Positions 19,749 to 52,153 of a stretch of 53,700 nucleotides of DNA are shown here, one piece after another. The notes under the pieces are model-generated. The model made no database searches, had not been told where the DNA came from, and was given only the letters and a program-made list of their open reading frames with translations. The stretch covers positions 1 through 53,700 of the IMG/VR virus record IMGVR_UViG_3300013136_000004. One strand, 5' to 3'. This DNA is from a virus (taxonomy: Duplodnaviria; Caudoviricetes). A program made the position numbers and the translations under genes. The number at the start of each line of letters is the position of its first letter. The first letter of the stretch is position 1.

Positions 19749-20135
19749 ATGATTTCTATTACGCGGAAATTCGAGTTTCATTCTGCCCACTATCTTCCAA
19801 ATTACGATGGAAAATGTTCCCGCCAGCATGGTCACACCTATATTCTCGAAGTTGAAGTTGCAGGAAAGATAAAAGCCCAAGGTCCAAAAACAGGAATGAT
19901 AATGGACTTCGGTGAGTTGAAAATATCGGTCGATAAGGTTGTTATAGAAAAATTAGACCATGAGCTCCTCAACGATGTATGGGAAAATCCAACAGCAGAG
20001 GTTATGGTTGAAGATATCGCAATAATGCTTCTTCCTTTCCTTCCTGGTCTTGTAAGAGTGAGATTATACGAAACAACTAACAGCTATGCCGAATGGAGAA
20101 AAGATGAAAGTTTTGAGCGTATTTCGAAGCATTAA
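19749..20135 (+). CDS. queD: 6-carboxy-5,6,7,8-tetrahydropterin synthase
   Basis: FHSAHYL, CSRQHGHTY, MDFG, LDHELLN, NPTAE, LYET. Confidence 0.95.
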   Translation: MISITRKFEFHSAHYLPNYDGKCSRQHGHTYILEVEVAGKIKAQGPKTGMIMDFGELKISVDKVVIEKLDHELLNDVWENPTAEVMVEDIAIMLLPFLPGLVRVRLYETTNSYAEWRKDESFERISKH

Positions 20136-20781
20136 TGGAGAAGTAAATCGAAGCCTCCAGGGCTCGATGGCGACATTTGTCAGGTTTGCAGGATGTCCTT
20201 TCAGATGTTCATACTGTGATACAAGGAGGGCGCAAAAGAAAGATTCTGGAAGAATTATGACCGTCGATGAAATCGTCAATTCTATTATTGCTGAAGGATG
20301 CGAAAATGTCACTCTTACCGGAGGGGACCCTCTCTATCAATCTCAAGATGATTTAAAGTACCTTCTTAGGGAGCTGACAGAGAAGAGATGCTTTAAAGTT
20401 TCAATTGAGACGAATGGATTTTTCTCTGTCGAGCCCTATGAGGAATTCAGATTCGATGTTTCATTCGTAATGGATTATAAGCTGAAAGGCTCAGGGATGG
20501 ATGGGCATATGAAGGACGAGAATTTCGTTCCTTTATGGAAAAATGATTTTATTAAATTTGTCATTACAAGCATTGCGGATTATTCTCAAGCAAAGGAGGT
20601 GATGAGGCGGCTTAGACTTCAAGGATGCGAAGCGAAGTTTGCATTTAGTCCTTGCCATGGAGGGAAATTTGATGCTGCGAAATTGATAGAAGAGATGAAG
20701 AATGACAGAATCACAGACTGTATAGTTAATCTTCAAATCCATAAGTATATATGGCCGGAAGCCGGCGAGAAAGAGGTCTAA
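20104..20781 (+). CDS. queE: 7-carboxy-7-deazaguanine synthase (radical SAM)
   Basis: SINGE, FVRFAGCPFRCSYCDT, TGGDP, IETNG, LQIHKYIW. Confidence 0.95.
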   Translation: MKVLSVFRSINGEVNRSLQGSMATFVRFAGCPFRCSYCDTRRAQKKDSGRIMTVDEIVNSIIAEGCENVTLTGGDPLYQSQDDLKYLLRELTEKRCFKVSIETNGFFSVEPYEEFRFDVSFVMDYKLKGSGMDGHMKDENFVPLWKNDFIKFVITSIADYSQAKEVMRRLRLQGCEAKFAFSPCHGGKFDAAKLIEEMKNDRITDCIVNLQIHKYIWPEAGEKEV

Positions 20782-20782
20782 G

Positions 20783-21229
20783 ATGTCAGTGATTGTAGAT
20801 GTGAAGATAAATGGTGGAACATATTACTTGGGAGAATCTCCTGAGGAAATTTTCAAAGCACTTATTTCGATTTTTGATTTTACTGGAAAATATCAATTCT
20901 CTCCTCTCGAAACATTAAAGGGCAATTTTATTGAAATTTGTGAAATGGCAAAAGAGAATTTCATTGAACTAAAGAAAAGCCCACTTGTCACAAATCCGGA
21001 ACTCACAAAAGAATATCGAAAATGGCAGATGAAGATGGATAGGTTCATTGCGAGATTTCAATCGATTCAGAGTGTAGAGGAGTTTCATCAAAAGTTTTTC
21101 GATATGCTTCTCTCATTTGAAAACCTTTCTCCTCTTCACGGATTTGGTGCTAAAAATAAGTGGGGAGATAAGCTCTATGGAGACCCGGAGAGAAAACTTC
21201 TTTCAAAAATGGGAGGAAAAATTGAATGA
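20783..21229 (+). CDS. Hypothetical protein within the que cluster
   Basis: Tightly packed ORF between queE and queC. Confidence 0.65.
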   Translation: MSVIVDVKINGGTYYLGESPEEIFKALISIFDFTGKYQFSPLETLKGNFIEICEMAKENFIELKKSPLVTNPELTKEYRKWQMKMDRFIARFQSIQSVEEFHQKFFDMLLSFENLSPLHGFGAKNKWGDKLYGDPERKLLSKMGGKIE

Positions 21230-21915
21230 GAAATTTAGATGAAAAAAGAGCAATTGTTTTATTGTCGGGCGGGCAGGATTCTGCAACCTGTCTCTCTATT
21301 GCGATGAAGACATTCATCGAGGTCCATACTGTAAGCTTCTACTACGGACAGAGGCATAAGCTGGAGCTTGAGAAGGCGAAGAAATTGAGCGAAATAGCAG
21401 GAGCGAAATCTCACGCAGTTGTCGATATTGCGGGACTCTTCTCTCAGGTGACAGAATCTTCATTGATGGATTCAAATTCGGATATTTCTGAGAAATGCAA
21501 ATTTGATGATTCTGTCCCTGCATCATTTGTTCCGTTTCGAAATCTTTTCTTCATTTCATCTGCTGCCGCCATTGCGTATAGAAAAGGGATAGCGAATCTC
21601 ATGACAGGGGTATGTTCCACTGATTTCTCAGGATATTTTGACTGCAGAGACGTCTTTATCAAGGCAGCGAATGTGGCGATTTCTCTTGCTGGAGATTGCA
21701 ATCTTGATATCCACACTCCTCTCATGTGGCTCACAAAGGCAGAGACTGTCCTTCTTATGGCGAGACTGGAAACATTCGAATGGTATGAGCACACTCTTAC
21801 CTGCTATGAAGGAAAAGAGCCTCCATGTGGCGTCTGTCCTGCCTGTAAGTTGAGAGCAAAGGGATTCGAGGAGGCTGGACTCATGGACCCGTTAATTCTA
21901 AAATTCGAGGAGTAA
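21226..21915 (+). CDS. queC: 7-cyano-7-deazaguanine (preQ0) synthase
   Basis: LLSGGQDSAT, YGQRH, VPFRN, DCR, TPLM, TCY...CGVCPAC. Confidence 0.96.
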   Translation: MRNLDEKRAIVLLSGGQDSATCLSIAMKTFIEVHTVSFYYGQRHKLELEKAKKLSEIAGAKSHAVVDIAGLFSQVTESSLMDSNSDISEKCKFDDSVPASFVPFRNLFFISSAAAIAYRKGIANLMTGVCSTDFSGYFDCRDVFIKAANVAISLAGDCNLDIHTPLMWLTKAETVLLMARLETFEWYEHTLTCYEGKEPPCGVCPACKLRAKGFEEAGLMDPLILKFEE

Positions 21916-21916
21916 G

Positions 21917-22849
21917 ATGAGGAAAAAACATTATTATACATGGGACGAATTCAATGATGATTGTGTTGAGCTCTCGAGAGTGATTTCGAATTCTGGGGTT
22001 CGAGGAAAAGTTTCTGGAATTTATGGAGTCCCTAATGGCGGAAATCTTCTTGCTGACAGGCTGAGTAGATTGCTCTCACTTGAAAAGGTCCACAGAGCTT
22101 TCGCTGATTCTCCGGGAGTTCTTGTTGTTGACGATATAATTGATTCCGGAGAAACAAGAAGGAGATTTCCTTACAATCATTTTGTCTCTATTCACATAAG
22201 ACCCGAAGTCGAAAATTCCTTTGAAAAAACCCTTTGTCTTCGAGTAGAGGATAGATGGGTGTGTTATCCGTGGGAGAAAGAAGAGGAGAATAAAGGAGAA
22301 GATATCGTCAGGAGGATGCTCGAATTCATCGGAGAAAATCTGAATCGTCCAGGGCTGAGAGAAACTCCGGAGAGAGTTGTCAAGATGTGGGAAGAGGTGT
22401 TCGAGGGATATGATAAGAATAAATTTCCGAAGATAACGACAATTAACAACGGAGAAGACGGAATACTCTACCACGACATGATAATTGATAGTGGGTATTT
22501 TTTCTCACACTGCGAGCATCATGTCGTTCCCTTCTTTGGAAAATTCAGCTTCGGGTACATCCCCGACAAGGTCTTGATTGGGGCAAGTAAGATATCGAGA
22601 GTGATTGATTTCTATTCTCACAAACTCCAGATAGCCGAAAGGCTCGTTCATGAAATAGTAGATTGCATGCAAGAAACACTTTCTCCGAAAGGATTGATAT
22701 TGATAATGAGCGGAAGGCATCTCTGCAAGGAAATGAGAGGAGTGAAAAAATTCGATTCTCCTTTCGAGGTGATAGCTGTAAGGGGATGCTTTTCAACAAA
22801 TAAAGACGGATGCAAAGATGAATTCATGTCAAGAATTCAAAGGAGATAA
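21917..22849 (+). CDS. folE: Purine phosphoribosyltransferase-like domain fused to GTP cyclohydrolase I
   Basis: N-terminal YGVPNGG...LVVDDIIDSGET...YPWE (PRTase); C-terminal RPGLRETPERV, SHCEHH, GASKISR, LQIAE, HLCKEMRGV (GCH-I). Confidence 0.92.
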   Translation: MRKKHYYTWDEFNDDCVELSRVISNSGVRGKVSGIYGVPNGGNLLADRLSRLLSLEKVHRAFADSPGVLVVDDIIDSGETRRRFPYNHFVSIHIRPEVENSFEKTLCLRVEDRWVCYPWEKEEENKGEDIVRRMLEFIGENLNRPGLRETPERVVKMWEEVFEGYDKNKFPKITTINNGEDGILYHDMIIDSGYFFSHCEHHVVPFFGKFSFGYIPDKVLIGASKISRVIDFYSHKLQIAERLVHEIVDCMQETLSPKGLILIMSGRHLCKEMRGVKKFDSPFEVIAVRGCFSTNKDGCKDEFMSRIQRR

Positions 22850-22852
22850 GTT

Positions 22853-23296
22853 ATGGGAAGACTTTTCGGGAGAATTGTGATGACCGATTTAGCAGCAAAG
22901 ACATTTATCTTGATGTCGGTGGTTAGACCTCCTTTTCGATTTCCATCTCATTGGTTCAAGATATCTCTTGCGAGAGTTATGAATCCTGAAATGACAGATG
23001 ATGAGATAAAAAAAGAGTTTTTTGATAAAGGAAATGCGAAATTCGGCGACACGCTGAGGACGTTTTCAGACCCGAGAATTGGAGCATTCCGGGAAATTTC
23101 TAAAGGAAAATATATTTATGAAAATATTGTAACTCGAGGAATGCTTAGAAAATTCAAGGAAATCTACAAAGAGAAAAAGGATATAGGAAGATTTTTAAAA
23201 TCAAAGGAGAAAATGAATGAAAAAAGACAAGACAAATCATCTCAAAAGTCTCGGCGCAAAGAAAACAATCTACAAGCTCGGCGGGCCGAATACTAA
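22853..23296 (+). CDS. Hypothetical protein within the que cluster
   Basis: ORF with AAGGAG RBS between folE and queF. Confidence 0.6.
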   Translation: MGRLFGRIVMTDLAAKTFILMSVVRPPFRFPSHWFKISLARVMNPEMTDDEIKKEFFDKGNAKFGDTLRTFSDPRIGAFREISKGKYIYENIVTRGMLRKFKEIYKEKKDIGRFLKSKEKMNEKRQDKSSQKSRRKENNLQARRAEY

Positions 23297-24665
23297 AATT
23301 CTCGAGACATTCGAGAATAAGTTTCAGTTGAGGGAATATCGAATTCTCTTCCGGACAAATGAATTTTCTTCTCTTTGCGTTTCCGGAGATACTTTGATGG
23401 ATATTTCTCGCAACGAAGAAAAATATCCTGATGGAATCCCTATAAAAGATTTGGTGGGGACTGAGGGTATTATTTTCGGATTTGATTTAGAGACAAGAGA
23501 ACCAGTTGCGAGAAAATATCACTCTGTAAGAAAAACAAGAGAAGATGCTTCTGTCGTGAAAATCAATCTTGAGCACTTGCACTGCAGCGGAAAAGAAGGA
23601 GACGACCATATAACTCGAATCCCGAAAGAGATTGTAGTGACTCCAGACCATCCGGTTCTAATATCGACGGGGTGGGGAAAGACTTCTTGGATATTGGCTT
23701 CGGAGCTGGAGCCGGGGATGAGGTTAGTAGCTGACCAGAAATCTTTCGATTGTATTCGAGGAAAGGCTCGTCACAGACTCATAATGGAATGCTTTCTCGG
23801 GAGATATCTCGAGGATGAGCTGATTCACCACAAAGACCATTGCCATTTTAATAATGAAATTGAAAATCTTGAAATAAAAAATCAGTCTTCTCATTTCAGT
23901 CATCACCAATCAATGAAATATGGATATTCTTCGTCTCTTCCTTCGGTAGAAGAGCTCATCGAAATGTACAATTCCGGAGAAAATTTTAATTCATTAGCTA
24001 AAAAATTCAAGTGCGATTTTTCAACAATTGAATCGAGAATTGGACATCTGGTTGACAAAAGAACTCAGAAAGAATCTCTTTTGGCCAAGCCTGAGAGCAT
24101 TATTCATAGAAAATTGATGAAAGAGTGCTCTCAATATTATCAGAGAGGATATACTATTCTTGAGCTCTCTGAGTTCTACGGAGTTGATGGAACGACAATC
24201 TCTCAATGGATTATTAAATCAGGAGGAAAAGTTCGAACTTCTCTCGAAACAAAAGATTTTCGAAAAAGAGTTTCCGAGCTACCTTCTCTTAATCATCGAG
24301 TTGTTTCCGTTGAGCCTCATGGAAGGCAAGATGTATACAATCTCGAGGTCGAGGACATAGAAAACTTTTTTGGAAATGGAGTAGTGCTTCATAATTGCCC
24401 AAAAACCGGCCAACCGGATTTCGCCTCCATCGAGATAGAATATATCCCGAGAAAGAAGTGCATCGAATCAAAATCTCTCAAACTCTATCTCTTTTCCTAT
24501 AGAGGCCACGGCTCATTCATGGAGACGATAACCAATAAAATCCTCGAAGACCTGGTTGATACTTGTGACCCTCTCTGGATGAAGGTTGTAGGAAGCTTCA
24601 ATGCTCGTGGGGGAATTACAACTGACGTCGTCGCAGAATATCACTCAAAGGAGTATCGGCCGTGA
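23217..24665 (+). CDS. queF: preQ0 reductase (type I QueF) interrupted by an intein
   Basis: Spliced sequence EFSSL|CPKTGQPDFA, QueF motif ESKSLKLYLFSYR, FMET, FNARGGI; 142 aa after removing the intein. Confidence 0.92.
   Translation: MKKDKTNHLKSLGAKKTIYKLGGPNTKILETFENKFQLREYRILFRTNEFSSLCVSGDTLMDISRNEEKYPDGIPIKDLVGTEGIIFGFDLETREPVARKYHSVRKTREDASVVKINLEHLHCSGKEGDDHITRIPKEIVVTPDHPVLISTGWGKTSWILASELEPGMRLVADQKSFDCIRGKARHRLIMECFLGRYLEDELIHHKDHCHFNNEIENLEIKNQSSHFSHHQSMKYGYSSSLPSVEELIEMYNSGENFNSLAKKFKCDFSTIESRIGHLVDKRTQKESLLAKPESIIHRKLMKECSQYYQRGYTILELSEFYGVDGTTISQWIIKSGGKVRTSLETKDFRKRVSELPSLNHRVVSVEPHGRQDVYNLEVEDIENFFGNGVVLHNCPKTGQPDFASIEIEYIPRKKCIESKSLKLYLFSYRGHGSFMETITNKILEDLVDTCDPLWMKVVGSFNARGGITTDVVAEYHSKEYRP
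23376..24395 (+). mobile_element. Intein (340 aa) with HNH homing endonuclease and HTH repeats
   Basis: Starts CVSGDT; block B VTPDHPV; HHKDHCHFNNEIENL HNH motif; VYNLEV...NFFGNGVVLHN end; +1 residue is Cys. Confidence 0.93.
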
Positions 24666-25630
24666 ACGAAGTTACGATGTATTTTGCGGGATGTTGGGAT
24701 GGGAAGGCATCTCCGGAAGAGTATGAGATAGGAGTGAGAAATAAGCTCTGCTCATTCGTCTATCCGAAACAATTCGAGAGCTGGATGGATGTCTCTGGGG
24801 ACACACCTGGAAAAGTATTAATTGATTCAGGCGCCTTCTCTGCCTGGAATAAAGGCGACCAGATTGACTTCGAAAAATATATTAGATATTGCCACGGAGC
24901 AATATCTGAAGGAGAGAAGAGAAACAAGATAGTGAGAGTTGTCAATCTCGATGTCATTCCTGGAAAGAAAGGCGAGACGATAAATCTCAACTCTTCTGTG
25001 AAGAAAGAGGACAAGGCAATAATTGAAAAAGCGGCAGAGGATGGATATAAAAACCTCTGCCGATTTCTCGAGGATGGAATTACTCCGATACATGTCTTTC
25101 ACCAAGGAGAGCATTTCAAATGGCTCGACAAGATGGTTGAGAAGACAGATTATATTGGAATCTCTCCTGCAAACGACGTTCCTCCTGACCAGAAGAAGCT
25201 CTGGATGGATAGAGCATTTTCATATCTTGCGAAAAATAATATCAAGGTGAAGACTCATGGGTTTGCTGTTTTCGGTTCATCTATGATTCTTGAATTTCCT
25301 TGGACAAGCTGCGATGCCGCTACATGGAGAATTGCTGCCGGATTCGGATGTGCGTATTTCCCTGTCGGAGGATACAAGAATCCAGATTTCTCAAAGCCTC
25401 CTGTCGTTGTGAAGATTTCAGATAAACAGACAACAAAAGAGCAGTTTCAATTTTATGGAATCTTCGAAGAAGAGCTCCAGGAGACAGGGTATACTTTCGA
25501 AAAGCTCTCAACAACATGGGAGGAGAGATGTAGGGCAAATATGAAATTCTTCTTGCATCTCGAAAAATGGATAAATGAGAAGAAGAAGACTCTGACATTT
25601 AAACCGAAGAGTAGTATTTTTAGTATGTGA
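24662..25630 (+). CDS. dpdA: DpdA/TGT-like 7-deazaguanine DNA transglycosylase
   Basis: LIDSGAFSAW, NLDVIPG, IHVFHQGE, YIGIS, THGFA, SCDAATW; last gene of the que cluster. Confidence 0.8.
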   Translation: MNEVTMYFAGCWDGKASPEEYEIGVRNKLCSFVYPKQFESWMDVSGDTPGKVLIDSGAFSAWNKGDQIDFEKYIRYCHGAISEGEKRNKIVRVVNLDVIPGKKGETINLNSSVKKEDKAIIEKAAEDGYKNLCRFLEDGITPIHVFHQGEHFKWLDKMVEKTDYIGISPANDVPPDQKKLWMDRAFSYLAKNNIKVKTHGFAVFGSSMILEFPWTSCDAATWRIAAGFGCAYFPVGGYKNPDFSKPPVVVKISDKQTTKEQFQFYGIFEEELQETGYTFEKLSTTWEERCRANMKFFLHLEKWINEKKKTLTFKPKSSIFSM

Positions 25631-26657: not shown

Positions 26658-29600
26658 ATGAATAACGAAAATTACGTCCATCTTCACGTTCATAATGAAT
26701 ACTCATATCTTGACGGTCTCGGCTCGGCCAAGCAATGGGCAAAGAAGGCAAAAGGGATGGGATTCAAATCTCTTGCCTTAACGAATCACGGAAATGTAGC
26801 AGGAGTGATAAAGTGGCAAGAGGCTTGTCTTGAGGAAGGGATTTCTCCGATAATTGGATGTGAGATGTATATAGTTGAGAATATCAAGAAGAAAGAAAAA
26901 AATGAGGAGAGAAAGCACATAACGATTCTTGTCAAGAACGAATCAGGCTGGAAAAATCTCCTCACTATGCTCACGATAGCAAACACTGAAGGATTCTACT
27001 ATAAGCCGAGAATAGACCCTCAAATTCTTTGTGAGGATTTAGAGGGAATTGTTATTATGACTGCGTGCCATAACGGATTTATCTCTACAGAATGGGGTGC
27101 CTCTCTTCTCGGAAAGCTCGGAAGACTTTTACCGAAAGATTGTCTTGCGTTTGAGGTGATGCCTTTAAAGGCAAGATTTCAGGAGAGATATAATTCTCTT
27201 GTTTTATCAATGAGAGAATCGTTGAGGGATGTAAGAGATATTCCTGTTGTTCTCACAAATGATTGCCACTATGTCAATTCAGATGATGCGACTGCTCAGG
27301 AAACAATGCTCTCTATTCAATCGAATGCGAAATGGACAGACAAAGATAGATGGAAATTCGATACGGATGAATTGTTTCTAAAGAGTGCAAATCAGATGAA
27401 AATAGCTTGCTCGAGGACTCTCAATCTTCAGGGAGATGAATTTATAGAGAACTCTCTAAGGATAGCAGAGCAGTGCAATTCATTTAGAATAAAAAGTCTT
27501 TCTGTTAATCTTCCTGACCCGAAATCGAAAAATGGAGCTCTCACAGAAGAAGACTTTTTGAGAATAGTCGATGAAGGATATCTCGAAAAAATATGGCAGA
27601 AGGTTCCAGATGAAAAGCCTTACATGAAGAGACTCCGAGAGGAAATCGACCTTCTCAAGAAAAAAGGATTCATAAAATATTTTCTAATTGTTTGGGAAAT
27701 TGTAAATTGGTGTAAAGAAAATAATATCATGATTGGTCCAGGAAGAGGGTCTGTTGGAGGAAGCATTGTTGCATATCTGATGGGGATAACGATGGTAGAC
27801 CCTCTCAGATACAATCTTCTTTTCTGGAGATTTACAAGTCCTGACAGGAATGACTTGCCAGATATCGATATTGATTTTGAAGATTCAAAAAGGCACCTTG
27901 TATTTGAGCACATAAGAGAGCTATATGGAAAATATAATGTCGCATCCGTTAGTACTTTCATGTATCTGAAAGGAAGGTCTGTAATAAGAGATGTCGGACG
28001 AGTATTTGACTTGCCTTCAAAGGATGTAGATGAATTTGCAAAATCTCTTGAATATACAAAAGTTGACACGGACATCTTAAAATCATCATTTGATGAGACA
28101 TCTGAAGGAAGAGATTTTGCAAAAAAATATCCTCTCCAGTCTGATATAGCAATGAGGCTTGAAGGAAACATACGAGGAACGGGCACTCATGCTGCTGCTT
28201 GTGTTATTTCAGAGGATGATTTAAGAGAAGGAAAGAGAGGAAATCTTATCTACTGCAAAGGAGGAGAACTTGCTGTCTGCTGGGAAAAAGACGATGCAGA
28301 GAAAATGGGATTGATGAAGATGGATATTCTTGGACTCAATGCTCTCTCTGTATTTTCGGAAGCGAACAGGCTCATTGCACTGAATGGAAAGCCTGAGATA
28401 ATCTTCCACAAAATTCCTCTCGATGACAAGAAAATCCTCAAAAGGTTCGCTCAAGGCGATACTTCTGGTTGCTTTCAATTCAACTCTCATGGAATTACAA
28501 AGCTCTGTAAAGACATGAGAGTATCAAGCTTCGAGGACCTCGTTGCGATAAATGCTCTCTATCGACCTGGAACACTGAGGAGTGGAATGGTCGATAAATT
28601 TGTTATGAGAAGGAGAGGGAAAGAAAAGTGGGAGCCTATACATTCTATTGTTGAGAAAATAACAAAAGATACCCACGGAATCATCGTCTATCAAGAGCAG
28701 CTCATGCTTGCGCTCTACGAGCTCGCAGGGCTTTCATGGACGACAATAGAGAAGATAAGAAAGGTTGTCGGAAAATCGAAAGGATTGGAGGCATTCAATA
28801 GATTCAAAGAAGAATTTGTCAAAGGATGCGAAGAAAAAGGGACTTTGTCGAGGAAACAGGCAGAAGATTTTTTCGACGAAATGAATAATTTCGGCGCGTA
28901 TGGATTTAATCGTAGCCACGCCGTTGAATACACGATGATTGGGTACTGGTGCATGTATTTTAAGCACTACTTTCCAAATGAATTCTATTCTGCTTCTCTC
29001 TCATACGGAAGCGAAGGGAAGAAGGAAGAGATAGTGGAGGAAGTATATGCATCGGGATTGAAAATAAAACTTCCGAAAGTAGGAATCAGCCATTCAAAGC
29101 TCTGGATTGTGAAAGGGGATGAAATTTACTGTCCATTTATCGAAGTTAAAGGGCTTGGTGAAAAACAGAGTGAAAGAATCTTTCGAGGAGATATAGGAGA
29201 AAAAATAAGAACTGTAGAGAGGAAGAAAAAAGAGGAACCGCAAGGTCCGAAGATAAAAGGATTTTTCTCTCAGAAAAAAGAAGAGCCTGTGAAGAAAAAA
29301 GAAGTAAAGGTGATGGAGGGTGGAAACTCTCTCAACTCTCTTCTTCAGAAAATGCATTCCTTTGAGCCAGATTATGAACCTTCGTTTGATGAATTGATGG
29401 AATTGAGCGGATTATTTTCTTTCTCTCTCTTGAAAGAAGACCTGAGAAAGAAAGAATTGAAGCTTAGAAAGATAAGCTATCGAGACGAATCTGTAAGCAA
29501 GTGTAATGATTGTCCTTTAAGAGAATTCGCAAGAGCACCTGTTCTTCCATCTCTCGGAAGATATAATATTGCAATCATCGGAGAATCTCCAGGAAGGGAT

Positions 29601-30053
29601 GAAGACAGAGAAGGAATTGGATTCATTGGAGACTCCGGTGGGCTTCTATGGGAAGAATGCTACAAGCATGGAATAAAAAGAGAATATTGTCATGTGACAA
29701 ATGTCTATAAATGCTTTCCAGGTTCCTCGAAAGAAAAATATGATTTAACGAAGACGAAAATGTGCTGGAAGCATTTAGATAAAGAGCTTAAAGAGCTGAA
29801 TCCTGGAGTCGCTCTCGGGATAGGAAATTCATGCGTTCATTTCTTCGAAAATAAGACATCCGGAATATACGATTTGAGCGGAACTGCAAAGTGGAGCTTT
29901 AAGTATGGCTGCTGGATTTGCTATTGTATTCATCCTGCCTCTCTTTTATATGGGCAGGAAAAAGATAAGAAAGAGAAATGGAGAGAAGGGATAAAAACAT
30001 TTGCACAGAAAGTTTCAGTTCTTATGATGAGAAAGGAGGAGGGGCTGATATGA
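26658..30053 (+). CDS. dnaE: DNA polymerase III alpha subunit with C-terminal family-4 uracil-DNA glycosylase domain
   Basis: HLHVHNEYSYLDG PHP domain, GPGRGS, PDIDIDF, KMDILGL, YGFNRSH; C-terminal CNDCPL...IGESPG...F.G.SG...TNVYKC...HPA. Confidence 0.95.
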   Translation: MNNENYVHLHVHNEYSYLDGLGSAKQWAKKAKGMGFKSLALTNHGNVAGVIKWQEACLEEGISPIIGCEMYIVENIKKKEKNEERKHITILVKNESGWKNLLTMLTIANTEGFYYKPRIDPQILCEDLEGIVIMTACHNGFISTEWGASLLGKLGRLLPKDCLAFEVMPLKARFQERYNSLVLSMRESLRDVRDIPVVLTNDCHYVNSDDATAQETMLSIQSNAKWTDKDRWKFDTDELFLKSANQMKIACSRTLNLQGDEFIENSLRIAEQCNSFRIKSLSVNLPDPKSKNGALTEEDFLRIVDEGYLEKIWQKVPDEKPYMKRLREEIDLLKKKGFIKYFLIVWEIVNWCKENNIMIGPGRGSVGGSIVAYLMGITMVDPLRYNLLFWRFTSPDRNDLPDIDIDFEDSKRHLVFEHIRELYGKYNVASVSTFMYLKGRSVIRDVGRVFDLPSKDVDEFAKSLEYTKVDTDILKSSFDETSEGRDFAKKYPLQSDIAMRLEGNIRGTGTHAAACVISEDDLREGKRGNLIYCKGGELAVCWEKDDAEKMGLMKMDILGLNALSVFSEANRLIALNGKPEIIFHKIPLDDKKILKRFAQGDTSGCFQFNSHGITKLCKDMRVSSFEDLVAINALYRPGTLRSGMVDKFVMRRRGKEKWEPIHSIVEKITKDTHGIIVYQEQLMLALYELAGLSWTTIEKIRKVVGKSKGLEAFNRFKEEFVKGCEEKGTLSRKQAEDFFDEMNNFGAYGFNRSHAVEYTMIGYWCMYFKHYFPNEFYSASLSYGSEGKKEEIVEEVYASGLKIKLPKVGISHSKLWIVKGDEIYCPFIEVKGLGEKQSERIFRGDIGEKIRTVERKKKEEPQGPKIKGFFSQKKEEPVKKKEVKVMEGGNSLNSLLQKMHSFEPDYEPSFDELMELSGLFSFSLLKEDLRKKELKLRKISYRDESVSKCNDCPLREFARAPVLPSLGRYNIAIIGESPGRDEDREGIGFIGDSGGLLWEECYKHGIKREYCHVTNVYKCFPGSSKEKYDLTKTKMCWKHLDKELKELNPGVALGIGNSCVHFFENKTSGIYDLSGTAKWSFKYGCWICYCIHPASLLYGQEKDKKEKWREGIKTFAQKVSVLMMRKEEGLI

Positions 30054-48198: not shown

Positions 48199-48630
48199 AT
48201 GAGGAATGAGATGAGTAGAATAGTTATCAAACAGCATTATGTTACATTTTTCAGCCCTGGTACTTTTATGGCAGAAACAACTACAAAAAGAATATCTCGA
48301 TGGAACATAAAAGAAGCCGTGGAAATGTCACACCATATAACAGAAAGATACAATTCTCATCCATACTGTTTTAAATTTAGTACCCGTGGAAGAACAGAAG
48401 ATGAGATTGATAGCAGGGAATTAAAAACATCTAAACGTTTTTATCTTGGAGGAACAGTTTTATCTCTGAAAGAAATAAAGAATCGTGGTCTTGAAAAAGA
48501 CAGAATATTAATGTCAAACATGGAAGACAATGGTTGGGATAAAATTGTTGAATCATGTACGCCGTGGAAATGGTGTCAGCCTTTATATAAAGGAGACGTT
48601 GTCTTAGACATGGAGAAGTACAGATTATGA
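48199..48630 (+). CDS. Conserved phage hypothetical protein
   Basis: YVTFFSPGTFMAETT...PYCFKFSTR...FYLGG. Confidence 0.65.
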   Translation: MRNEMSRIVIKQHYVTFFSPGTFMAETTTKRISRWNIKEAVEMSHHITERYNSHPYCFKFSTRGRTEDEIDSRELKTSKRFYLGGTVLSLKEIKNRGLEKDRILMSNMEDNGWDKIVESCTPWKWCQPLYKGDVVLDMEKYRL

Positions 48631-48647
48631 AAGGAGAAGTATAAAAT

Positions 48648-48898
48648 TAGGGCAGCTTTGTTGTTGCTGTTGTTGTTAAAAGTTGCGTCTGAACCGCAAC
48701 GATGTGAAGTTTATCTTTTTGCCCTATATTTTCATCTGAGTCCAACATCTATAGTTGGTGGGTTGGCCGAAGTTAAAATCCCAAATAAGGGTTCAATTCC
48801 CTTCTCGTCCTCCAATAAAACATACGGACGAGTGGTCTAATGGGAAGGCGGGGAGAATTTTAAGTAATGAGCTAATTCATTCAACAACATAGACAAAG
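48648..48898 (+). ncRNA. Y-RNA (YrlA)-like ncRNA with circularly permuted tRNA domain; ends approximate
   Basis: T arm AAGGG-TTCAATT-CCCTT (48787-48803), acceptor 3' strand CTCGTCC-T-CCA (48804-48814), linker, acceptor 5' strand GGACGAG (48826-48832), D arm GTCT-AATGGGA-AGGC; enclosing helix begins TTGGCCGAAG. Confidence 0.75.
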
Positions 48899-48954
48899 AC
48901 GATACATGATGCAATTGAAATATCACTTGAAATGATATTAGATAATCATGAACC

Positions 48955-48995
48955 GAAAGGGGAGAACACGGATAGGTTCTCCCCTTTTCATTTTC
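48955..48995 (+). terminator. Rho-independent terminator
   Basis: AAAGGGGAGAAC-N8-GTTCTCCCCTTT followed by TCATTTT. Confidence 0.8.
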
Positions 48996-49051
48996 AAAGG
49001 ATGAAGCAATGAAAGAGAGACAAGAGTTGTGGTGTCACAACTGCAATAAGA

Positions 49052-49330
49052 ACGTATGCAATAGGAGGCACAAGGGAAGCCTGGCTGAACATAACATACA
49101 ACTACTCGATTTATTTCTATAAGTATATAGATAAAGAGAAAGGGATTTGATTTCTATACGGAAAAACAGGAAAGGAAAGCATTCCGATACTGGAAAACGC
49201 AATAAGCAAACTGAAAGACGACAACGAGGAGGACTACTGGAGAGCAACAGAAGGCAACGCAAAGAGAGCATTAATGAATCTACTCTTAATTGCAAGCATA
49301 AGACCTGACGGGATATGGGAAGGAGATTAA
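49052..49330 (+). pseudogene. 5'-truncated, nonsense-interrupted remnant of a phage hypothetical gene
   Basis: TYAIGGTREAWLNITYNY...KGI*FLYGKTGKESIP...YWRATEGNAKRAL...RPDGIWEGD; internal TGA at 49148; no usable start. Confidence 0.6.
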
Positions 49331-49500
49331 ATGAAAAGAGTATGCGAAATATGCAATAAGATAATAGATGAGAAAGACACAATAATAGTAACACCCAGCC
49401 AATATAGAGAATGCAAAGGGATAGGCAAACCAATACAGTATTGCTTTAGAGAAGACAACAGAGTAATATGTGAAAAGTGCTGTATAATAGGGAGAAAAGA

Positions 49501-49846: not shown

Positions 49847-50275
49847 ATGGATGTGAAAGATGTGAAAGGGAGAGCGAAAGGGAAGGGATTCCCTCCTGCA
49901 AGGGTGGTAGAGAGAGCCCTCTGGGAATCTGGTGGGTTCCTCTCAGCTGCTGCCGAACTGTTAGGTTGCGCACAATCCACCCTATCAGAAAGGGTAAAAA
50001 AGAACGACAGATTAGCGGCATGTTTGAAGCTTATCGAGGAGTCTTTTCTCGACCTTTCAGAGCATAAATTAGTACGCGCAATCAAAAATAACGAGGCATG
50101 GGCAATACAGTTCTATCTGCGCACAAAGGGTAAAGGAAGAGGATATGTAGAAGGCGGAAAGGGAGAACAGCGGGAAGAAACAGCTCCTATCTTCATACAT
50201 CAGCCAAGTGGAGGAGCGTTGCCAGTAGTAAAGACATACTCCACTCAGAGCAACGATGCTGTTAATGGTAAATAA
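49847..50275 (+). CDS. terS: Terminase small subunit
   Basis: HTH (GFLSAAAELLGCAQSTL) and AIQFYLRTKGKGRGY motif; upstream of terL; AGGAGG RBS. Confidence 0.8.
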   Translation: MDVKDVKGRAKGKGFPPARVVERALWESGGFLSAAAELLGCAQSTLSERVKKNDRLAACLKLIEESFLDLSEHKLVRAIKNNEAWAIQFYLRTKGKGRGYVEGGKGEQREETAPIFIHQPSGGALPVVKTYSTQSNDAVNGK

Positions 50276-50280
50276 ATTTA

Positions 50281-50389
50281 ATACCCGGTATTAAAAAAGT
50301 TTATACCCGGTATTAAAAAAGTTTATACCCGGTATTAAAAAAGTTTATACCCGGTATTAAAAAAGTTTATACCCGGTATTAAAAAAGTT
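50281..50389. repeat. Tandem repeat, five copies of 22 bp (ATACCCGGTATTAAAAAAGTTT)
   Basis: Copies at 50281, 50303, 50325, 50347 and 50369; palindromic ATACC-C-GGTAT core; no spacers. Confidence 0.95.
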
Positions 50390-50449
50390 AAGAAACAAAA
50401 GGAATTACGACGTCAAAGGAAACGTTATCTTAATAAAGTAGATTAAAGA

Positions 50450-52153
50450 ATGCCTATGCAAGAGCTAACATATAATAGTGGAGGAAAGAAAGGAAGACCA
50501 CTTGGATGGAGAAAAGATACCCATTCAAAGGAAGCTATTGCTAAGAAGAGAAGACTTGAGAATATATATACGAAGGAAACACTTGCTCAGATAGATAGAG
50601 AGAAAGATAGTAGTATAAGAGAAGAAGAGGGGAGAGAGAGTACCCCCCGGGGAGGTGGAGAATTTGCTCAAGGGGTGAGTGAGAGAGGGGTGGGGAGCCC
50701 CTCTCAAAATTCTTCTCACTCTGCTTCGACTTCTTCTCACTCTGAAAAAATCTCTCAACTGGATTCTGGTAATGATTCTGAAATTTTCTCTCCTGTTAAT
50801 ACACCACCTCCACAAAATTTTTCATCTTCTTCTATAGGTTATAAAAATGGTGGTTATTTTTTAAACCCTTCTGAAGCCTCTAATCTGATAAAGAAGAATG
50901 TTCCTGTAAAGACGATAAAGACAACCTCTGTCTTTGACGCAAATCTTTCATCTGACTCTAAGGTGATATGTGACAGGGGAGGTGCTCGCTCATCAAAATC
51001 CTACTCTATTGCGCAGCTCATAGTAGAGCGGTTTCTTGGAATTCCTGGTAGGAGGATTCTCATCGTTCGGAAGACCATGCCTTCGCTCCGTATCACCACA
51101 TTGCCTCTCATATATGAGACTTTAGATAATTATGGGTATAAGCAGAAGATAACGGAAGAGAAAGTTGCATTTAATATTTTATTTGGAAAAAGTTTGATTC
51201 ACTTCTCCTCTCTCGATGACCCGGAAAAGATTCACTCATCTGAATGGAATGACATCTGGATGGAGGAGGCAACAGAGTTTACATACGAGGATTTCATTAC
51301 TCTGAAGTTGCGCACATCTGCTCCTGATAAAGGCATCAGGAATCAATTGTTTCTGTCTTTCAATCCGATAGATGAGTATCACTGGATAAAATCGAATATT
51401 TTGGATGCACACGTTCCGGATTGCACAGAAATAGTGTCAAATTACAAGTGCAATCCTTTCTTGTCGGCTGATTATATTCAGACCTTGGAGGCGTTAAAAG
51501 ACCAGGACAGAAACTTTTACAGGATATTCGCTGAAGGAGAATGGGGTCGCCTGGAGCACGTTATCTACAAGAATTGGTATGAGACGGCGGACTTTTCTAT
51601 TCCTGTTTCTGGCGACAATACATTCTATGGACTGGATTTTGGGTTCAATTCGCCTACGTCTCTCGTCGAGGTACGCGTGGATGCGCGCCCGGGAGAGGCT
51701 TCTGCATGGCGGGTAGAGGCTAATGAGATAATATATGAGGCAGGGCTCACAAATTCTGCCCTCATTGAGAAGATGAAGGTTGTTATCCCAGAAGACAGAA
51801 GAAGAAAATTCATCTATCCTGATTGCGCAGAGCCTCAGAGGATAGAGGAATTGCGCTCTGCTGGGTTCCGGGTGGAGCCTGCAGAAAAGGATGTACTGGA
51901 CGGGATTGATTTCTGTAAACGCTTCAGAATCGGAATTACCTCAAATTCGATAAATGGACTGAAGGAGATAAGAGGCTATTCCTACAGAGTCGACAGGCAA
52001 GGGAAAGTCCTGGATGAGCCAGTCAAGTATAACGACCATTTCATCGACGCCTTCCGGTATGCTCTATATACGCACGGAAAGAAGTTTCTTGGAGGAAGGC
52101 CTCGAATTCGGTCATTCACAATCAAAGCAGATGGAGAGAAGGAGGAGAAATAA
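50450..52153 (+). CDS. terL: Terminase large subunit (PBSX/SPP1-like) with long N-terminal extension; start uncertain
   Basis: GGARSSKS Walker A, WMEEATE Walker B, SFNP, GLDFGF, NDHFIDAFRY. Confidence 0.93.
   Translation: MPMQELTYNSGGKKGRPLGWRKDTHSKEAIAKKRRLENIYTKETLAQIDREKDSSIREEEGRESTPRGGGEFAQGVSERGVGSPSQNSSHSASTSSHSEKISQLDSGNDSEIFSPVNTPPPQNFSSSSIGYKNGGYFLNPSEASNLIKKNVPVKTIKTTSVFDANLSSDSKVICDRGGARSSKSYSIAQLIVERFLGIPGRRILIVRKTMPSLRITTLPLIYETLDNYGYKQKITEEKVAFNILFGKSLIHFSSLDDPEKIHSSEWNDIWMEEATEFTYEDFITLKLRTSAPDKGIRNQLFLSFNPIDEYHWIKSNILDAHVPDCTEIVSNYKCNPFLSADYIQTLEALKDQDRNFYRIFAEGEWGRLEHVIYKNWYETADFSIPVSGDNTFYGLDFGFNSPTSLVEVRVDARPGEASAWRVEANEIIYEAGLTNSALIEKMKVVIPEDRRRKFIYPDCAEPQRIEELRSAGFRVEPAEKDVLDGIDFCKRFRIGITSNSINGLKEIRGYSYRVDRQGKVLDEPVKYNDHFIDAFRYALYTHGKKFLGGRPRIRSFTIKADGEKEEK

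Follow-up and report, generated by a model that had tools for sequence, protein, structure and literature searches.

Bacterial Y RNAs of the YrlA class were delineated by Chen et al. (2014, PMC4201824) through T and D stem-loops arranged around an acceptor-like stem-loop, the motif GNCGAAN0-1G close to the 5' end, and a location at most 4 kb from a TROVE (Ro60) gene. According to the same report, a V arm is present in many, not all, of these RNAs, and in those of Salmonella and Mycobacterium smegmatis the Ro60 site can be recognised on its 5' strand only (PMC4201824). The M. smegmatis RNA is the one YrlA described there with a 7-bp acceptor stem; in vitro it was cut by RNase P, and in vivo it was encountered in two pieces, with CCA at the end of the 5' half (PMC4201824). 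The element considered here follows a comparable design and is located at 48627-48990 of the phage record IMGVR_UViG_3300013136_000004, which is estimated to be ~55 % complete and of which 53.7 kb, hereafter called the window, were analysed. Judged on its sequence, there is about an even chance that this element is a genuine phage small-RNA gene, forming a self-contained cassette of ~360 bp with its own terminator, that its working part is a Y-RNA-like tRNA mimic of the YrlA class, and that the proposed Ro60 partner is encoded elsewhere.

Phage Y RNAs situated beside a phage Ro60 gene are already on record. YrlA-like RNAs were described in this position for 22 phages (PMC4201824), and Yrl1/Yrl2 of Thermus phage phiLo were described in a complex of Y RNA, Ro60 and host PNPase, the phiLo Y-like RNAs also binding PNPase without Ro60 in electrophoretic mobility shift assays (PMC12135203). 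For a Listeria phage, a Y RNA beside Ro60 was put forward as a suggestion only (PMC12282133).

The permuted tRNA-like domain and its fold

The upper half of a tRNA was found in permuted order at 48787-48849 (+), where T arm, acceptor strand, CCA, linker, acceptor strand and D arm succeed each other. A preliminary description of this DNA had announced such a T-acceptor-D domain, and every part of it could be read directly from the sequence (Table 1). The nucleotides engaged in tertiary contacts of tRNAs were present as well, namely, in standard tRNA numbering, U8:A14, the Levitt pair A15:U48, G18G19 with T55C56, T54, A58 and G53:C61. When both strands of the window were scanned for this architecture (a T arm and a 7-nt strand, a complementary strand no more than 60 nt away, and a GG-bearing D arm), the present site was the sole one with 7/7 acceptor pairs; the four other matches displayed 6/7 pairs each and were all located within coding regions.

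The four-way shape that had been proposed was the minimum-energy fold of the + strand between 48750 and 48892 (-39.4 kcal/mol, z -2.57, equalled by one out of 200 shuffles), the fold of the reverse strand being unremarkable (z -0.26). The anticodon arm is replaced by a closed stem that exceeds 25 bp and is interrupted by internal loops. The preliminary description had likewise seen an irregular helix in the position of the anticodon arm and no anticodon loop; both strands of this helix were recovered, in agreement with the minimum-energy fold, and the closed stem indeed leaves no such loop.

The GNCGAA element previously noticed in the stem was confirmed as GCCGAAG. The two strands of the window together contain GNCGAAN0-1G 38 times (3.5e-4 per base), and the chance of finding it within ~30 nt before the T arm is ~1 %; GCCGAAG was also invariant in the second genome considered below.

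Two features had been predicted outside this part. The strong terminator was found, with perfect hairpin arms of 12 nt each (48956-48967 / 48976-48987) preceding a T run. An outer helix between CTTTGT..TGTTGTTG and CAACAACA..ACAAAG was retained only as far as the complementarity itself is concerned (15 nt, 80 %), each of its pairs having a probability of ~0.01. It was rejected as a structural element (48656-48675 / 48882-48898), because forcing it destroys the core fold and the competing stem 48754-57/48882-85 has a probability of ~0.8. Within the 5' segment of the cassette, a tract rich in (UUG)n was noted, and GTTGCG/TCTGAAC/CGCAAC at 48682-48700 may form a hairpin.

A second genomic copy of the cassette

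Contigs from four lake metagenome runs were aligned to 48200-49400. Two of the runs, X5 and X6, which come from other samples, contained a copy of exactly 48627-48987 with ~89 % identity, 36-40 substitutions and four to five indels. This copy, hereafter the variant, was the relative used for comparison and was assessed from its differences. Variant contigs, that of X6 being ~4.1 kb long, displayed depths of 73-96, versus 13 (X5) and 5 (X6) for the window's own contigs, and belong to a genome that is more abundant than the phage in these runs. The flanks of the variant gave no match to 48200-49400, and the 30 nt on each of its sides were absent from the whole window. Because the flanks differ, the unit extending from the upstream stop codon to the terminator can be regarded as a cassette common to different genomes.

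The core running from the motif to the acceptor strands, including CCA and linker, is far more constrained than the sequence around it, with two changes in 72 nt, versus 34 in 160 nt for segments B and D together (Fisher p 1.3e-4). Both core changes fell into loops, the variable loop (48784 A>G) and the T loop (48797 T>G, position 59). GCCGAAG, the acceptor strands, the discriminator, CCA, the linker, U8/G9 and the tertiary-contact positions were unchanged. Positions 48761, 48762 and 48765 were changed although the adjacent GCCGAAG was not. The D arm was affected by 48848 G>A (converting U-G into U-A), 48838 T>A (breaking pair 13:22) and 48844 G>C (in the loop).

Within the stem and the tRNA-like domain, seven out of nine changed pairs still pair (predicted pairs, indels ignored). 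Pairing was kept by a two-sided change at 48761/48877 (GU to UA) and by six one-sided changes, at 48762, 48765, 48764/48874, 48766/48872, 48755/48884 and 48848. In the hairpin of the 3' tail, all five changed pairs were broken, its register being uncertain from nearby indels. The minimum-energy pairs that join the 5' segment to 48713-48753 were broken too. An X5 contig carrying the variant's upstream flank together with the 5' segment (48627-48708) reached a depth of 199, compared to 96 for the core contig; the 5' segment may be present twice in the variant genome or in additional genomes.

The frame of the 143-aa open reading frame (ORF) preceding the element, which is closed by the stop codon TGA at 48628-48630, stays open over 48631-48840 and thus across the tRNA-like domain. 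Coding or read-through of 48631-48840 was rejected, as the variant displayed a 1-nt deletion at 48678 and non-synonymous core changes, and had lost the stop at 48838. It is argued here that the open frame is probably a coincidence rather than a sign of read-through, and the 5' segment in particular is unlikely to be coding because of the deletion at 48678.

Searches of cultured phages, IMG/VR, genome contigs and the metagenome contigs reached through TerL yielded no further homologue. Region 48600-49000 gave no match to cultured phages (blastn), and exact core patterns of 25 and 39 nt had 0 matches each in IMG/VR. Patterns of the type GCCGAAG..T loop..CCA led to 82 IMG/VR loci and at least 121 genome-contig loci, among which nhmmer detected YrlA-like RNAs and tRNAs and no homologue. 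None of the TerL relatives (19 IMG/VR and 33 metagenome loci, 38-65 % identity) carried a homologue of the element.

Table 1. Features of the cassette and its surroundings, with the changes counted in the variant copy
Feature	Position	Strand	Composition, pairing or basis	Changes in variant
Conserved 5' segment of cassette (leader or promoter region)	48627-48712	+	Variant match starts at 48627	1 substitution / 86 nt, plus 1-nt deletion at 48678
Hypervariable linker	48713-48753	+	Forms segment B with 48754-48765
Segment B	48713-48765			17 / 53, plus 1 insertion in X6 copy
Closing stem, 5' strand	48754-48767	+	Pairs with 48871-48885; minimum-energy fold, pair probabilities 0.8-0.98
Core	48766-48837		GCCGAAG, helix strand, T arm, both acceptor strands, CCA, linker	2 / 72
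GCCGAAG	48766-48772	+	In closing-stem 5' strand; matches GNCGAAN0-1G of YrlA RNAs
Extended 'anticodon-stem' analogue strand	48773-48782	+	TTAAAATCCC; pairs with 48851-48854 and 48858-48863
Short variable loop	48783-48786	+	AAAT; no V arm
T arm	48787-48803	+	AAGGG / TTCAATT / CCCTT
Acceptor 3' strand	48804-48810	+	CTCGTCC; then discriminator T (48811) and encoded CCA (48812-48814)
11-nt linker closing the acceptor stem	48815-48825	+	ATAAAACATAC	Unchanged
Acceptor 5' strand	48826-48832	+	GGACGAG; 7/7 Watson-Crick pairs with 3' strand
T8 (U8) and G9	48833-48834	+	Read from sequence
D arm	48835-48849	+	GTCT / AATGGGA / AGGC
Segment D	48838-48944			17 / 107
G26, returning stem strand and internal loop	48850-48870	+	G26 at 48850; GGG-AGA-ATTTTAA; then GTAATGA opposite CGAAG
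Closing stem, 3' strand	48871-48885	+	Fold, pair probabilities and variant comparison
Variable 3' tail	48886-48955	+	Weak hairpin	Hairpin not kept
Terminator segment	48945-48987			0 / 43
Intrinsic terminator	48956-48992	+	AAAGGGGAGAAC..GTTCTCCCCTTT and T run	Variant match ends at 48987
Gap containing the element	Between 143-aa ORF (end 48630) and 142-aa ORF (start 49847)		1.2 kb without any ORF of at least 90 aa
TerL	50450-52153	+	At 3' end of window, as is the portal protein

Relationship to YrlA RNAs and rival explanations

Among the traits by which YrlA RNAs are recognised, the element displayed the T-acceptor-D order, the tertiary-contact nucleotides and GNCGAAN0-1G in the closing stem. 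A covariance model was built from 20 YrlA-like RNAs of phages and bacteria, 17 of which originated from 13 phage records, all with TROVE. The element was the only significant match of this model in the window and was matched over its full length (32.7 bits, E 2.6e-6).

Several observations weigh against the reading as a YrlA-class small-RNA gene. Both the V arm and GGUUAUC/YUAY are absent, their place being occupied by a 4-nt variable loop; the V arm is also missing in the YrlA-like RNAs L058:544-672, L205 and L213. The strand opposite the motif reads GUAAUGA, where CCCUUG is usual. The Rfam model for YrlA (RF02553) gave no match even at E<=10, with queries of 171-551 nt; typical phage YrlA-like RNAs reach 29-50 bits with it, also under the gathering score of 69 bits. 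With the 20-RNA model, the Ro60-linked RNAs of L130 reached 54-56 bits and a tRNA-tRNA junction serving as a control (L006) reached 32.2 bits; because this junction scores so high, the 32.7 bits of the element, which stem mainly from the T and D arms, are not discriminating alone. No convincing sigma-70 promoter was apparent on the + strand of 48600-48760, and the motif around TATAAAAT was not repeated above chance elsewhere in the window. No RNA run was among the six runs containing the stretch. Covariation fits the structure but is thin, since it comes from one relative and one-sided transitions often keep pairing by chance, and two pairs were broken, D-stem 13:22 and 48776/48860 (AU to AA). 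The homologues and covariation on which the preliminary description had made its proposal depend were obtained in part: one related copy with a constrained core, and two broken pairs out of nine in that single relative.

The missing Ro60 gene points in the same direction. No TROVE match was obtained in six frames of the 53.7-kb record, that is, none in the 48 kb upstream and the 4.7 kb downstream, so that the absence of a nearby Ro60 gene, noticed from the start, extends to the whole record; nor was RtcB found in it. A scan of IMG/VR for GGCCGAAG..T loop returned at least 118 loci, from which many permuted tRNA-like RNAs were recovered. All 14 other phage records with typical YrlA-like RNAs that were searched contained TROVE, at a distance from the RNA that was determined in nine of them: up to ~1 kb in seven, 8 kb in one and 86 kb in one. 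A Ro60 gene may be located in the missing ~45 % of the phage genome. Altogether, the element is YrlA-like by design, but its membership is partial because it departs from the class in RF02553 score, V arm, strand opposite the motif and linked TROVE gene. What stands of the Y-RNA-like identity first proposed is the architecture and the motif.

Related RNAs were encountered in other phages and in bacteria. Locus L130 (record G001, one of the 14 with TROVE; same contig as L149) encodes a phage TerL with 50 % identity and represents the only TerL relative with YrlA-like RNAs; two of these, together with Ro60, are located ~2-4 kb upstream of TerL, at the map position of the element. This Ro60 has 444 aa, and further contents of L130 1-1884 / L302 are two Y-like hairpins sharing GGGTTACTTCA, a tRNA-Pro and a sigma-70-like promoter in front. 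The motif of L130 reads GGTGAAG / GGTGCAG, not GNCGAAG. An NCCA within the acceptor loop was also displayed by the YrlA-like RNAs L079, L205, L213 and L262 and can therefore be considered a recurrent subtype. In L213, L262 and L205, ACCA and a linker of 3-7 nt come after an acceptor stem of 7 bp, which places them in the same subtype as the element. These three RNAs lack a V arm and are located on contigs of bacterial metagenome-assembled genomes, at 2984-3124 of L213 (Bryobacterales), 833-966 of L205 (Methylomirabilota) and 225-366 of L262. The phage YrlA-like RNAs L315 (= L046) and L099 comprise GGCCGAAG, a T arm and an acceptor stem, with a hairpin CCACYCGCRAGRGTGG replacing the D arm; ACCA is present in L315.

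With YrlA of M. smegmatis, the element shares the T-acceptor-D order, the 7-bp acceptor stem and the position of GNCGAAN0-1G, close to the 5' strand of the closing stem. It differs in that its CCA is encoded, not added, and in lacking a V arm, a nearby rsr and a match to RF02553, and it forms part of a ~360-nt cassette. Like the Ro60-linked phage YrlA-like RNAs (e.g. L016, L028, L058, L130), it is phage-borne and displays the permuted design and a CGAA-type motif. In contrast to the element, which is an orphan in its record, these RNAs adjoin TROVE and most of them have a V arm and GGUUAUC.

If the element acts as a YrlA-class RNA, its elbow would serve tRNA enzymes of the host as a recognition site, in the way described for YrlA (TruB, DusA). 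RNase P classically acts on a 7-bp acceptor stem that stacks on a T stem of 5 bp and precedes U-CCA. Since a 7-bp stem followed by U-CCA is present here, RNase P may be proposed to cut 5' of G48826 (after 48825). Exonucleases would trim the 11-nt linker to the encoded CCA and leave a nicked two-piece RNA with a tRNA-like end, a predicted product that parallels the halves of M. smegmatis YrlA. Processing at the CCA, which the preliminary description had envisaged, has a direct precedent in that RNA, and the recurrence of NCCA in L079, L205, L213 and L262 speaks for this step. The GCCGAAG stem would dock to the Ro60/Rsr ring of the host, or to one whose gene belongs to the missing ~45 % of the phage genome. 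This ring might then be tethered or gated by the RNA, with host PNPase possibly recruited in addition, as was described for Deinococcus radiodurans and phiLo.

A tRNA mimic that functions independently of Ro60 has to be weighed against this. Its elbow and CCA end would bind or titrate RNase P, the CCA-adding enzyme, modification enzymes, EF-Tu, synthetases, PNPase or toxins directed at the acceptor end, while GCCGAAG would be incidental or serve another protein. Such a mimic would agree with a window devoid of TROVE, with a cassette that moves between genomes without a linked protein gene, with the failure of RF02553 and the atypical strand opposite the motif, with the invariance of CCA and linker in the variant, and with the Ro60-free binding of PNPase by phiLo Y-like RNAs (PMC12135203). 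This explanation is a real possibility but on balance unlikely, as GNCGAAG is found at the expected place, where it is improbable by chance and conserved, and the TerL relative L130 has Ro60 and Y RNAs at the same map position. Anticodon nucleases are an unlikely target of such a mimic; the role of decoy against them, which the preliminary description had entertained, was not supported because the element has no anticodon loop to cut. The tRNA-like domain could also be a stabilising or processing handle of a larger ncRNA of ~340 nt, of which 5' segment 48627-48712 would be the functional part. With one substitution in 86 nt this segment is as conserved as the core, and the X5 depth of 199 for its contig, versus 96 for that of the core, suggests more copies of it or its presence in more genomes. 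None of the parts has a match to an Rfam family, however, the fold joining the 5' segment to the rest is lost in the variant, the outer helix has a probability of ~0.01, and the conservation of the 5' segment may reflect a recent recombination boundary or a promoter; a larger ncRNA was consequently held to be improbable.

Permuted tRNA-like genes likely arose by tandem duplication, an origin that would also suit an inert remnant, whether it was left where two decayed tandem tRNA genes meet or is an attP-like fragment derived from a tRNA. Moreover, tRNA-tRNA junctions score like the element with the 20-RNA model, and AGTTGGT at 48754-48760 resembles a D loop. Against this, the acceptor strands pair 7/7 and the 'anticodon' strands close on each other, whereas a T loop..CCA..D arm pattern retrieved nine loci from IMG/VR, all of them tRNA-tRNA junctions with acceptor strands that are not mutually complementary. 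The core is far better kept than the flanks in the second genome, the cassette has its own terminator, and a scan of 61 ORFs revealed no integrase. A junction of two live tRNA genes does not apply, because ARAGORN found neither tRNA nor tmRNA in the whole window. The preliminary description had named a decayed tRNA junction as the outcome that would overturn its proposal; 7/7 acceptor pairing, core conservation and ARAGORN all disfavour it, and an inert remnant was considered very improbable. No Rfam family matched any part of the cassette at its gathering score, RF00005 (tRNA) giving no match, and the Rfam comparison previously suggested yielded, instead of YrlA or tRNA, weak matches of 16 bits to tmRNA_permuted and beta_tmRNA over the T arm and acceptor stem (gathering scores 47 and 84). 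In the element, as in two-piece tmRNA genes, the T arm comes first, followed by the acceptor 3' strand and CCA, then by a spacer, expected to be excised, and by the acceptor 5' strand. Alanine identity of tmRNA resides in the pair G3:U70. Unlike tmRNA genes, the element lacks this pair, the third acceptor pair being A:U and not G:U, as well as a tag ORF (no plausible tag frame was seen by eye in three frames after the stem) and pseudoknots. It possesses a full D arm, and ARAGORN, which calls permuted tmRNAs, found nothing, so that a two-piece tmRNA-like gene is the least credible of these explanations. Red and green algae, like some archaea, have permuted tRNA genes in which the 3' half is also upstream of the 5' half, but there the anticodon arm is kept and the transcripts are circularised to ordinary tRNAs; in the element, a long closed stem replaces this arm. 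A tRNA or permuted tRNA gene was rejected on the grounds of the lacking anticodon loop, ARAGORN and RF00005.

Returning to the Y-RNA-like tRNA mimic, features specific to the element are the encoded, invariant CCA and linker, the lack of a V arm, the ~360-bp cassette with its conserved 5' segment, and the occurrence in two genomic contexts. It is conceivable, although distinctly doubtful, that these features announce a new class of phage tRNA mimics, in which a Y-RNA-type cassette moves between phages without Ro60 and is converted by RNase P into a two-piece RNA with a possibly chargeable CCA end, directed at host Ro60, PNPase, or factors or toxins that recognise acceptor ends. No publication on Ro60-less phage YrlA-like RNAs was found in the phage YrlA, Y RNA/Rsr and permuted-tRNA literature, mostly surveyed short of full text, and the supplementary YrlA alignments of Chen et al. 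may contain closer V-arm-less, CCA-bearing matches. Standard annotation (ARAGORN, Rfam) overlooks such genes entirely. To our knowledge, Y RNAs with tRNA-like domains have been described solely in partnership with an adjacent Ro60 gene. The element keeps motif and elbow without Ro60 and hence offers a test case for whether the module can act through host proteins alone. Its encoded CCA at a 7-bp acceptor stem offers another, for whether the two-piece form generated by RNase P is designed or a peculiarity of M. smegmatis.

Genomic environment

The metagenome runs in which the window occurs indicate lake water as its source. All plausible genes of the window are located on the + strand. RNA-related families were not detected among the neighbouring ORFs (Pfam, PHROGs). 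The neighbour protein DUF7873 had no close relatives in IMG/VR and only distant ones in cultured phages. Directly upstream of TerL (50271-50411), the 22-nt unit TTTATACCCGGTATTAAAAAAG, which has a palindromic core ATACCCGGTAT, is repeated five to six times in tandem; this array may represent a packaging (pac/TerS-binding) site or operators.

A full 7-deazaguanine gene set was found at 19749-25630, composed of PTPS/QueD, radical-SAM QueE-like, QueC, GTP cyclohydrolase I, QueF and TGT/DpdA-like genes; it suggests modification of the phage DNA. The QueF-like gene (23217-24665) is split by an intein with HNH endonuclease and HTH domain, and its Pfam matches were QueF (400-479), Intein_splicing (134-393) and HNH_3 (184-223). 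DNA polymerase Pol III alpha (26658-30053) carries a domain of the uracil-DNA-glycosylase superfamily at its C-terminus (residues 970-1109). A clamp loader and a RecA-like protein are also encoded in the window.

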